Below are positions 35,112-38,056 of a stretch of 64,000 nt of DNA, one piece after another. This stretch comes from Octopus vulgaris (taxonomy: Eukaryota): the NCBI GenBank assembly GCA_951406725.2, contig OX597840.1, positions 17,298,001 to 17,362,000 of the forward strand. The letters run 5' to 3'. Below the pieces are notes generated by a model. The model saw only the letters and a list, made by a program, of their open reading frames with translations, was not told where the DNA came from and did no database searches. Numbering within the stretch: the stretch's first letter is position 1; every line of letters starts with the position of its first letter. Position numbers and translations under genes: made by a program.

Positions 35112-35964
35112 TGGTGAAGCACGACCTTCGGACGTTAGGTCTCACCATGGAAATGACTAGAGACCGAGACCTATGGAAGTATGCTGTGCGTGAGAAGACC
35201 CGGCAAGACTAGTGAAGCCATAATCCGTGGCCCCTACCTGGGACGTAGTCAGTCCACCTGTGCATACCTTCCTTCTTGTGACACTTGTGAAGACCTGTTG
35301 AGGCAAGTGAGAATCGAATCGTATCAAATCAAATCGAACCAAATCAAAATAGATGAACATCAATGGAATTTGTATCCTTGTGGTACCAGTGCCGGTGGCA
35401 CATAAGAAAACCATCCGAACGTGACCGTAGCCAGTACCGCAATGACTGGCCTCCGTGCTGAGGGCACGTAACAAACACCATCCGAGCGTGGCCGTCCGCC
35501 AGCCTCGTCTGGCACCTGTGTCGGTGACACATAAGAAAACACCATCCGAGCGTGGCCGTCTGCCAGCCTCGTCTGGCACCTGTGTCGGTGGCACATAAAA
35601 AACACCATCCGAGCGTGGCCGTCTGCCAGCCTCGTCTGGCACCTGTGTCGGTGGCACATAAAAAACACCATCCGAGCGTGGCCGTCTGCCAGCCTCGTCT
35701 GGCACCTGTGTCGGTGGCACATAAAAAACACCATCCGAGCGTGGCCGTCTGCCAGCCTCGTCTGGCACCTGTGTCGGTGGCACATAAAATCACCCACTAC
35801 ACTCTCGGAGTGGTTGGCGTTAGGAAGGGCATCCAGCTGTAGAAACACTGCCACATCTGACTGGCCTGGTGCAGCCTTCGGGCTTCCCAGACCCCAGTTG
35901 AACCGTCCAACCCATGCTAGCATGGAAAGCGGACGTTAAACGATGATGATGATGATGATGATGA

Positions 35965-36433: not shown

Positions 36434-37216
36434 GTGTATGTGTGTGTATATGTATAACGTTTCAGCAAAAGTGACTGACAGAATAAGTGCTAGTCAATTT
36501 GCTCGACTAAAGGTGGTGCTCCAGCATGGCCATAGTCAAATAAATGAAACAAGTAAATGAGTAAAAGAGTAAAAGGGTAGTGCAAAAGTGGGTAACTGAA
36601 TTTAGGAGGGAATGGAGAGTCTTGAAGAAGACCCAAGGTCTGGATATCCTGCAAATTCCACCACTGAGGAAAACATTGATCATGTTCAGCACATGGTAAT
36701 GGATGACAGGTGGTTGACTATATATGAAATAGCCAATGCTATAAGCATATCCAGTGAGGGAGTTGGGAATATTCTGCTCAATGAACTTGGCATGAGGAAG
36801 GTCTCTTTCTATTCAGTGGATGACACATCTCACACCTGAACAAAAGTACACCAGGCTAATCGCATCACAGGAAAATCTAACTTTGTTTGAAACAAATCCT
36901 GCTGGCTGGTTCTCCTGAACATTTCCTAACCTAGGATGAGTGTTGGGTTCATCTCTTTGAGCCTCAGACAAAGAGATAATCCATGTAGTGGAAACACCCC
37001 ATCTCACCTGCTCAAGGCTAAGGTGGTTTGATCTGCAGGGAAGATGACAGCCTTAGTTTTTTAGGATGCAAAATGAATTGTGCTTCAAATGGGTCACACC
37101 ATCAATGGAATGTACTATGCCAACCTACTAAGGCAGATTCAAAAGGCTATCAAGACCAAATGCTGAGGAACACTGATGATAAGGGTCTTCATCATGACAA
37201 TATTCCAGCACACAAG

Positions 37217-37614
37217 ATGGCGAGTGGGCAGAAACGTTAGCGCACTGCACGAAATGCTGAGCGGTATTTCGTTTGTCTTCACATTCTGAGTTCAAATTCT
37301 ACCGAGGTCGACTTTGCCTTTTATCCTTTCGTTTCTTGCATCGCGAACGCTTCTTCGCGCGTCGACCCGTGTCGTTTTCGCCTTCTTCTTCTTCTTCTCC
37401 TCCTCCTCCGCGGCGACGAGGAAGGAGCTGGCGCGCGCGTATACGAACGGCGGCCGAACTCGCGAGCGCCCTCGCGCCCCCTGTTTTCGGCCCCTCCGAT
37501 TCCTTTCGTTCTCGTTTCCGATCGTCGGAATTAAGTACCAGTTGCATACTGGGGTCAATCTAATCAACTACCCCCTCCCCCAAAATTTTGGGCCTTGTGC
37601 CTAGAGGAGAAAAG
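37217..37614 (+). mobile_element. SINE family C with degenerate 18-bp TSD, containing a foreign-looking insert
   Basis: TSD aatattccagcacacaag (37199-37216) / aatattctagtatataag (37615-37632). Body matches 19056-19220. Confidence 0.85.
37333..37528. other. GC- and CpG-rich insert of unknown origin
   Basis: Hand count gives ~125 G+C and ~34 CpG in 37331-37530. Absent from the sister SINE copy at ~19170. Confidence 0.85.
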
Positions 37615-38056
37615 AATATTCTAGTATATAAGTCCCTGGTTTCAATGGCTTCTGTGTGTGACGATGGCTTTGAACTGGTTGATGGCCCTCTTTATTCTCC
37701 TAACTAGGCCCCTTCCTCCAACATGAATAAACACTTGGCTGGGAAGCAGTATCACATTGATGATGTCATATCTGTTGTTGATGACATTTTTGATGAATAG
37801 GATGAAAGCTTCTTCACCAATGACATCTAAGCACTCCAACACTGAGTGGACCGCAAGGGGGTTTATGTTGGACAATAAACCTCATTTGCTAGCATTCCAT
37901 GACAATATCTTGGTCAGCCTATGAACTTTTGAGGCGTTAGGAAGGGCATCACTCATCCATGTCTGTCAAAACAGACACAGAGCCTTCAGCTAGTGAGCTC
38001 CTGTCAAACCAGCCAACCCATGCCAGCATGGAAAACGGACGTTAAATGATGATGAA

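Follow-up and report, generated by a model that had tools for sequence, protein, structure and literature searches.

A patch of host rDNA 5′ETS within an old SINE of Octopus vulgaris, probably left by end-joining repair

Short pieces of distant sequence caught at mended breaks, and rDNA found away from its arrays, have been described in several systems. Class 2 templated sequence insertions, or TSIPs (Onozawa and Aplan), measured 73-414 bp with a median of 191 bp in a cell-line assay, and in the human cell assay such patches are argued to come from RNA templates (PMC5110952). The SD-MMEJ criterion of Yu and McVey asks for a repeat, 4 bp or longer and no more than 20 bp away, that takes in the junction and one base on each side, with chance rates for the permissive form of 43-54% (PMC2943611). 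Dna2-deficient yeast accumulates distant templated insertions at breaks, with rDNA donors implied (PMC11724301). The human genome contains dispersed rDNA pseudogenes and short rDNA strings (Robicheau et al., PMC5381670), and rDNA-containing SINE families such as SINE28 carry rRNA-derived modules and have amplified (PMC10946416). In the literature searched, which does not extend to most subscription papers, no paper on ETS patches in octopus was found.

The window analyzed here is a stretch of 64,000 nucleotides from Octopus vulgaris (contig OX597840.1, positions 17,298,001 to 17,362,000, forward strand), in which a piece of 5′ETS from the host's own rDNA interrupts an old SINE. The best explanation is end-joining repair of a germline double-strand break in that SINE, to which we assign a probability of about 0.86. 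The insert and its surroundings comprise the following parts, numbered from the first letter of the window:

36579..37216, + strand: decayed mariner-type DNA transposon, left of the SINE, 83.0% identical to a majority sequence built from 19 copies in the genome
37199..37216, + strand: left TSD of the SINE, 18 nt
37217..37331, + strand: host SINE, 5′ part, carrying motifs like an A box and a B box (by sequence), 88-91% identical to sister copies
37332..37528, + strand: rDNA 5′ETS piece, 197 nt, replacing 9 nt of the SINE (from own-genome matches and the donor alignment)
37529..37614, + strand: 3′ part of the host SINE, 90-95% identical to sister copies
37615..37632, + strand: right TSD of the SINE, 18 nt, with four CpA>TpA changes
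37633..37933, + strand: mariner, right of the SINE, 79.1% identical to the majority sequence of 19 copies

The insert thus lies in a SINE at 37217-37614, at position 116 of 212 of that element, and the SINE lies in the decayed mariner, a nesting that an earlier note had proposed and that is borne out by mariner sequence continuing directly after the right TSD copy. The majority sequence of the 19 mariner copies yields a transposase-like frame containing YSPDLAPSD, which we take to be a mariner-type motif.

The same note had singled out the insert as CpG- and GC-rich and unlike anything else in the window. For CpG this holds: the 196 nt at 37333-37528 contain 34 CpG as counted within the window, against 17 in the next CpG-richest 196-nt stretch, and the observed/expected CpG ratio is 1.80 in the insert versus 0.37 for the window. 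The insert's GC content of 63.3% was confirmed as well, but GC by itself is not unique to it, as positions 41001-42000, with a GCT/GCC microsatellite, reach 61.8%. This other GC-rich island includes a long GCT/GCC trinucleotide tract at 41110-41740 that is poly-alanine-like in one frame. A CpG-rich tandem repeat with a unit of ~59 nt and 17 CpG per 196 nt occupies 35400-35700 and beyond.

A search of the octopus's own genome (2.8 Gb, 227 contigs) with the insert returned 38 matches, all 35 of 35 candidates having been scored. Eukaryotic SSU rRNA adjoins the match in 13 of the 13 loci scanned, and the match stops 57-93 nt short of the 18S start in every one of the 19 donors. Because SSU rRNA stands beside the matches, which are collinear and just upstream of 18S, the insert is identified as a piece of host 5′ETS; it is 98% identical to host rDNA. 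Among the matches are a tandem array on C20, whose period is 18,360 nt, as well as dispersed units on C1, C5, C11, C16 and other contigs, and the donors on C1, C5, C20 and others are intact. In the closest donor, a dispersed unit at C1:41.38 Mb, the captured piece corresponds to 269 to 76 nt upstream of 18S; it lies in the sense orientation relative both to pre-rRNA and to the SINE. The 196 aligned positions show one substitution and one 3-nt gap, both within a CTT/CTC microsatellite, and are identical elsewhere. None of the 34 CpG of the insert differ from this donor, in agreement with the earlier observation that the insert shows no CpG decay.

A C at 37339 is common only to the insert and the C1:41.38 Mb unit among the 19 donors, and the donor form of that unit is present once in the assembly. 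From C20 array units the insert differs by 3-5 substitutions and 3-5 gaps, and the main array is 89-94% identical to it. The coding parts of the C1 unit are 99.4-99.5% identical to the array, and a tree of 20 rows puts the insert, the C1 unit and the array together in one open clade of 12 rows. Judged by these alignments, the donor appears to be the C1:41.38 Mb unit or an array type from which that unit came.

Several features of the rDNA sites were recorded along the way. The dispersed stretch at C1:41.38-41.40 Mb (L065-L068) is ~20 kb long, has an inverted ITS segment of ~870 nt, and carries a 28S interrupted by 1.77 kb. The 18.4-kb array lies at C20:23.94-24.08 Mb and a second cluster, of spacer repeats, at C33:0.18-0.25 Mb. 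Dispersed units on C1, C5, C11, C14, C16, C28 and C29 are many and display graded ETS types, 75-98% identical to the probe, which are usable as a record of spacer turnover.

The contrast in composition with the window is the sole point in favor of foreign DNA or a small functional RNA, both of which had been entertained for this insert along with horizontal transfer and contamination. Since the sequence is host rDNA 5′ETS and has the composition of the rDNA unit (GC 64.7%, 30 CpG per 196 nt), it is not foreign; the 98% identity refutes that origin. As for a structured RNA, the predicted fold has z = -0.64, with 51 of 200 shuffles folding as well, and Rfam gave 0 matches within the window. Taken together, a foreign or functional-RNA origin is vanishingly improbable, and the patch most likely has no function. 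The notion that the insert represents a closed ETS fold domain was likewise abandoned, because 31 pairs of the predicted donor fold leave the captured piece.

The host SINE is an old, tRNA-type element. A search with its 5′ part gave 3907 first-look candidates, of which 40 were scored, yielding 52 matches; against the majority sequence of 29 sister copies it is off consensus at 20/200 positions (17/112 in the 5′ part, 3/88 in the 3′ part), a divergence that takes in subfamily differences too. Five of 20 CpG bases in the host SINE have decayed. The 18-bp TSD on which the earlier claim of old age partly rested is real and has four C>T differences. All four are at CpA, in the right copy only and within 8 nt, by chance or through a local deamination event.

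From its closest donor the insert diverges at 1/196 positions versus 20/200 for the SINE (Fisher p = 1.4e-5), so the insert is far younger than its host, and the proposed recent capture into an older SINE is upheld. The order of events was mariner, then SINE, then patch. Octopus transposons are reported to be little methylated (PMC9476566), yet the sister SINEs show CpG decay; the ages are therefore argued from the rates as measured, with no assumption about methylation. In these sisters (L090-L118), transitions occupy ~25% of CpG bases (127/516, summed by hand) against ~9% divergence overall. Contigs of runs X4 and X18 cross both outer borders of the SINE and represent a haplotype that differs at 8 positions over 294-298 nt and at 3 over 195 nt, and the deep ETS contigs of X4 diverge from the insert behind 37478 and 37514; these contigs suggest that the SINE is older than the captured ETS type. 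X4 and X18 (36967-37923) bear different organism labels and the same alternative haplotype, with X18 labelled like X1 and X2, a pattern that suggests a species complex or a difference in labels.

These ages bear on the possibility of a chimeric retrocopy, in which a LINE reverse transcriptase would have jumped from SINE RNA onto pre-rRNA and then returned during insertion of the SINE itself. Such template switching needs an insert in sense to both RNAs, as is found here with a chance of 1 in 2, and an 8-mer is common to SINE and ETS. The ages clash with it, however: the SINE is 10% off consensus and its TSD copies differ at 4/18 positions, whereas the insert has 0 substitutions outside the microsatellite. 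Moreover, the X4/X18 haplotype keeps the same mariner-SINE borders, while the deep ETS contigs of X4 do not match the insert throughout. We regard a chimeric retrocopy as very unlikely.

The commonest form of the SINE at the site, found in 11 of 48 copies tallied, reads TTTCG-GGGTCGATA-AATT, and its middle 9 nt are lost in the host copy. Of the earlier estimate that about 9 nt had been replaced by about 196, the loss stands, but the donor-only part, 37332-37528, is 197 nt long. The right junction is blunt; at the left, SINE and donor have 2 nt in common, or 3 nt if the host copy already had T next, as in 3/48 tallied copies. The repeats at the junctions are as follows:

37330..37331, + strand: microhomology CG, 2 nt, common to SINE and donor
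37324..37333, + strand: direct repeat of 10 nt that spans the left junction, with 8 nt of SINE and 2 nt of donor sequence
37501..37510, + strand: second copy of the 10-mer, native to donor-type ETS
37516..37530, + strand: 6-bp inverted repeat across the right junction, 4 bp of native ETS and 2 A from the SINE

Both copies of the 10-mer and the terminal hairpin had been noticed before; both are confirmed, with the qualification that the second 10-mer is native rDNA and that the hairpin joins four inner rDNA base pairs to a last two A supplied by the SINE. The 8-nt core of the 10-mer occurs once in the 19.8-kb C1 unit, within the captured piece, and 0 times in the array unit examined. Of real rDNA windows of 197 nt, 1.0% contain it (190/19,602), against 7.4% when the insert was shuffled 20,000 times. 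When sister SINEs were joined in simulation to random rDNA pieces (4000 trials per set, one drawn from the whole unit and one from the ETS only), a 10-nt junction repeat arose singly in 5-6% of trials and one of 6 nt, counted at either junction, in 19-21%; singly, then, the repeats carry little weight. The two coincided, 10 nt at one junction and a near repeat of 6 nt at the other, in 0.68% of joins with the whole unit and 0.55% of those with the ETS alone, a rate to be read as suggestive only because the thresholds were taken afterwards from the observed values.

No TSD and no poly(A) were found at the insert's own ends, where there is instead a deletion of 9 nt; the marks of class 1 (LINE-mediated) insertions, a TSD of at least 5 bp and poly(A), are accordingly absent, with a deletion and no tail in their place. 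By sequence criteria the insert would be classified as a class 2 templated sequence insertion, given its distant and intact donor, the lack of TSD and poly(A), and the microdeletion with microhomology. It resembles the TSIPs, as far as the available text describes them, in being a piece of ~200 bp from a distant locus with a microdeletion, microhomology, no TSD or poly(A) and intact donors; it differs in being a germline event in an invertebrate, and rDNA 5′ETS is not among the donors listed in that part of the report (PMC5110952). Sister SINEs display the empty form at the site, and the age gap fits later insertion into a pre-existing SINE.

At the right junction the 6-bp repeat is directly adjacent, within the range given by Yu and McVey; at the left, a 4-nt repeat lies within 30 bp and the 10-nt repeat at 170 nt. 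The likeness to SD-MMEJ is that the right end is an apparent blunt join in an inverted repeat within 20 bp and that the left end sits in a direct repeat. Unlike the model, in which repeats adjoin the break on the same molecule, the left primer repeat of the insert is in trans and 170 nt off, outside the ±20 bp window (PMC2943611). With the yeast insertions the insert shares a copy-paste origin from repetitive, fragile regions caught at breaks; theirs followed induced breaks in mutants, whereas the insert is natural and inherited (PMC11724301).

The sense orientation of the insert is also what an endonuclease-guided event might leave, in which a SINE-targeting LINE cut at this site and its reverse transcriptase copied pre-rRNA instead of its own RNA. 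Of 133 SINE alignments in the loci examined, however, 101 cross the site unbroken, and these alignments reveal no hot spot of interruption at this SINE base. Five alignments end near the site and six begin near it, the host locus being included in each group, and three of the six came via a probe starting there. The deletion and the lack of TSD and poly(A) also stand against such an event, which we judge to be highly improbable.

The junction pattern instead fits templated break repair with synthesized microhomology. The SINE, already old, would have suffered a double-strand break in the germline, whose left end would have paired with the donor through the 8-nt match and been extended by 2 nt; CGTT may then have allowed the extended end to re-anneal at a point 170 nt farther upstream. 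At its right end the patch would have folded back and gained AA by snap-back synthesis, and this AA could have paired with the right end of the SINE. Polymerase theta is the candidate enzyme for these steps. The 9-nt loss, microhomology and junction repeats make repair filler, one of several origins listed in the earlier note, the best reading. The insert is an ordinary scar of a known repair kind and not foreign DNA; neutral in effect, it carries little weight when taken alone. It offers a clean natural example, the acceptor's earlier state being readable from thousands of sister SINEs, and would serve as a population marker if polymorphic.

An artefact of assembly or library preparation, in which a chimeric read placed a high-copy rDNA piece in the consensus, also had to be weighed. 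No record was found across either junction in contigs of runs X1, X2, X4 and X18 over 36700-37950, a comparison in which 37369-37427 was repeat-masked and rare paths are lost. Nor was one found over 37312-37548 in contig runs X2/X4 and raw-read runs X22/X23, where 37312-37427 was skipped and the raw-read runs gave 0 reads even on rDNA. Both comparisons thus had little power and weigh neither way. The rDNA is, in addition, very deep in these runs, with contig depths of 2,000-25,000 and more. On the other side, the most probable source for a chimera is the dominant array type, from which the insert is set apart by 3-5 substitutions and 3-5 gaps versus C20 units, and the insert differs from every assembled donor. 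The flanks match contigs of single-copy depth from two studies (X1, X2), exactly over 36971-37289 and with 0-1 differences over 37593/4-37787, and the clean 9-nt loss with junction repeats gives repair-like ends. An artefact is held to be decidedly unlikely, the two main grounds being the non-dominant rDNA type of the insert and its resemblance to a repair product at the ends; the insert is real in the assembly. Joints in the contigs that skip the insert derive from sister SINEs, and an empty allele at the locus is indistinguishable from such paralogues. A further idea, that the main rDNA type of X1 is the insert type, was dropped, as a short contig between two indels explains the table equally well.

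The chimera of SINE and rDNA is unique in the assembly. The 22-mer across the right junction has one occurrence in 2.8 Gb, so no second copy of the chimera exists there, and an ordinary SINE subfamily feature, once a conceivable reading, is set aside. SINE and insert together are covered only by the self match among the 52 matches obtained from the best 40 of 3907 candidates, and no other locus among the 133 alignments pairs a 5′ and a 3′ SINE half around an insert. SINE3 is an rDNA-containing SINE. The likeness of the insert to such families is that rDNA is joined to a SINE; unlike theirs, its chimera is single and unamplified, with the rDNA piece in mid-SINE (PMC10946416).

Isolated rDNA pieces are found elsewhere in the genome. 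For the ETS, 22 loci were classified, fewer than the 38 matches (20 fetched or chosen from the search, plus 9 weaker matches), and 7 of the 22 loci besides the insert are isolated pieces of ~110-730 nt (L016, L057-L060, L062, L063); L056 and L061 are compound, and the remaining classified loci are long units. An 18S probe of equal length, 197 nt, gave 34 matches versus 38 for the ETS probe. Among the 18 non-array 18S loci classified, from which 12 array-type and 4 weak matches were left out, isolated pieces of 204-512 nt account for 8 (L163, L167, L168, L171, L172, L176, L177, L178), and the compound locus L061 recurs. Together, the two 197-nt probes, ETS and 18S, yield no fewer than 15 isolated rDNA pieces besides the insert, 0.1-0.7 kb in length. 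Scaling ~8 per probe over the ~9-kb transcribed part leads to a rough inference of about a hundred or more rDNA pieces genome-wide. The human case is similar in having whole units and small rDNA pieces away from the arrays, decaying; in the present one the piece is young, and a multi-copy SINE as acceptor makes its junctions readable (PMC5381670).

Similar counts from the ETS (38) and 18S (34) probes disfavor mature rRNA as the template. More likely, the template was rDNA, either a free fragment or the locus, rather than mature rRNA; nascent pre-rRNA is a further candidate. A probe from the non-transcribed spacer gave at least 255 candidates, and the best 40 scored were all arrays or long units; short patches are uncountable there. 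A broader proposal is that germline breaks are routinely mended with nascent pre-rRNA copied into DNA, leaving about a hundred or more patches of all ages, with primer and snap-back synthesis at both ends in the present case. We consider it unlikely. If it were true, each patch would freeze the spacer type of its day and provide a dated record of rDNA turnover. Recurrent rDNA patches could show whether DNA or RNA templates are used in break repair, and the rate of spacer turnover.

The suggestion that the 3′ end of the insert marks a pre-rRNA cleavage site, an idea that came from yeast A0, was rejected: other ETS pieces end at ~-102, -42, +15, +25, +31 and +61. One of the 18S pieces, 359 nt at L172:1224-1582 (C5:23.837 Mb), has non-rDNA flanks and is 100% identical to the array, from which it follows that rDNA shedding is still going on; this piece is a very young patch and likely polymorphic. 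At L057:870-1227 (C3:62.371 Mb), a 157-nt piece from the ETS and start of 18S lies between 78-nt inverted copies of flanking sequence that are 93.6% alike, an arrangement that is a repair scar of the fold-back type.
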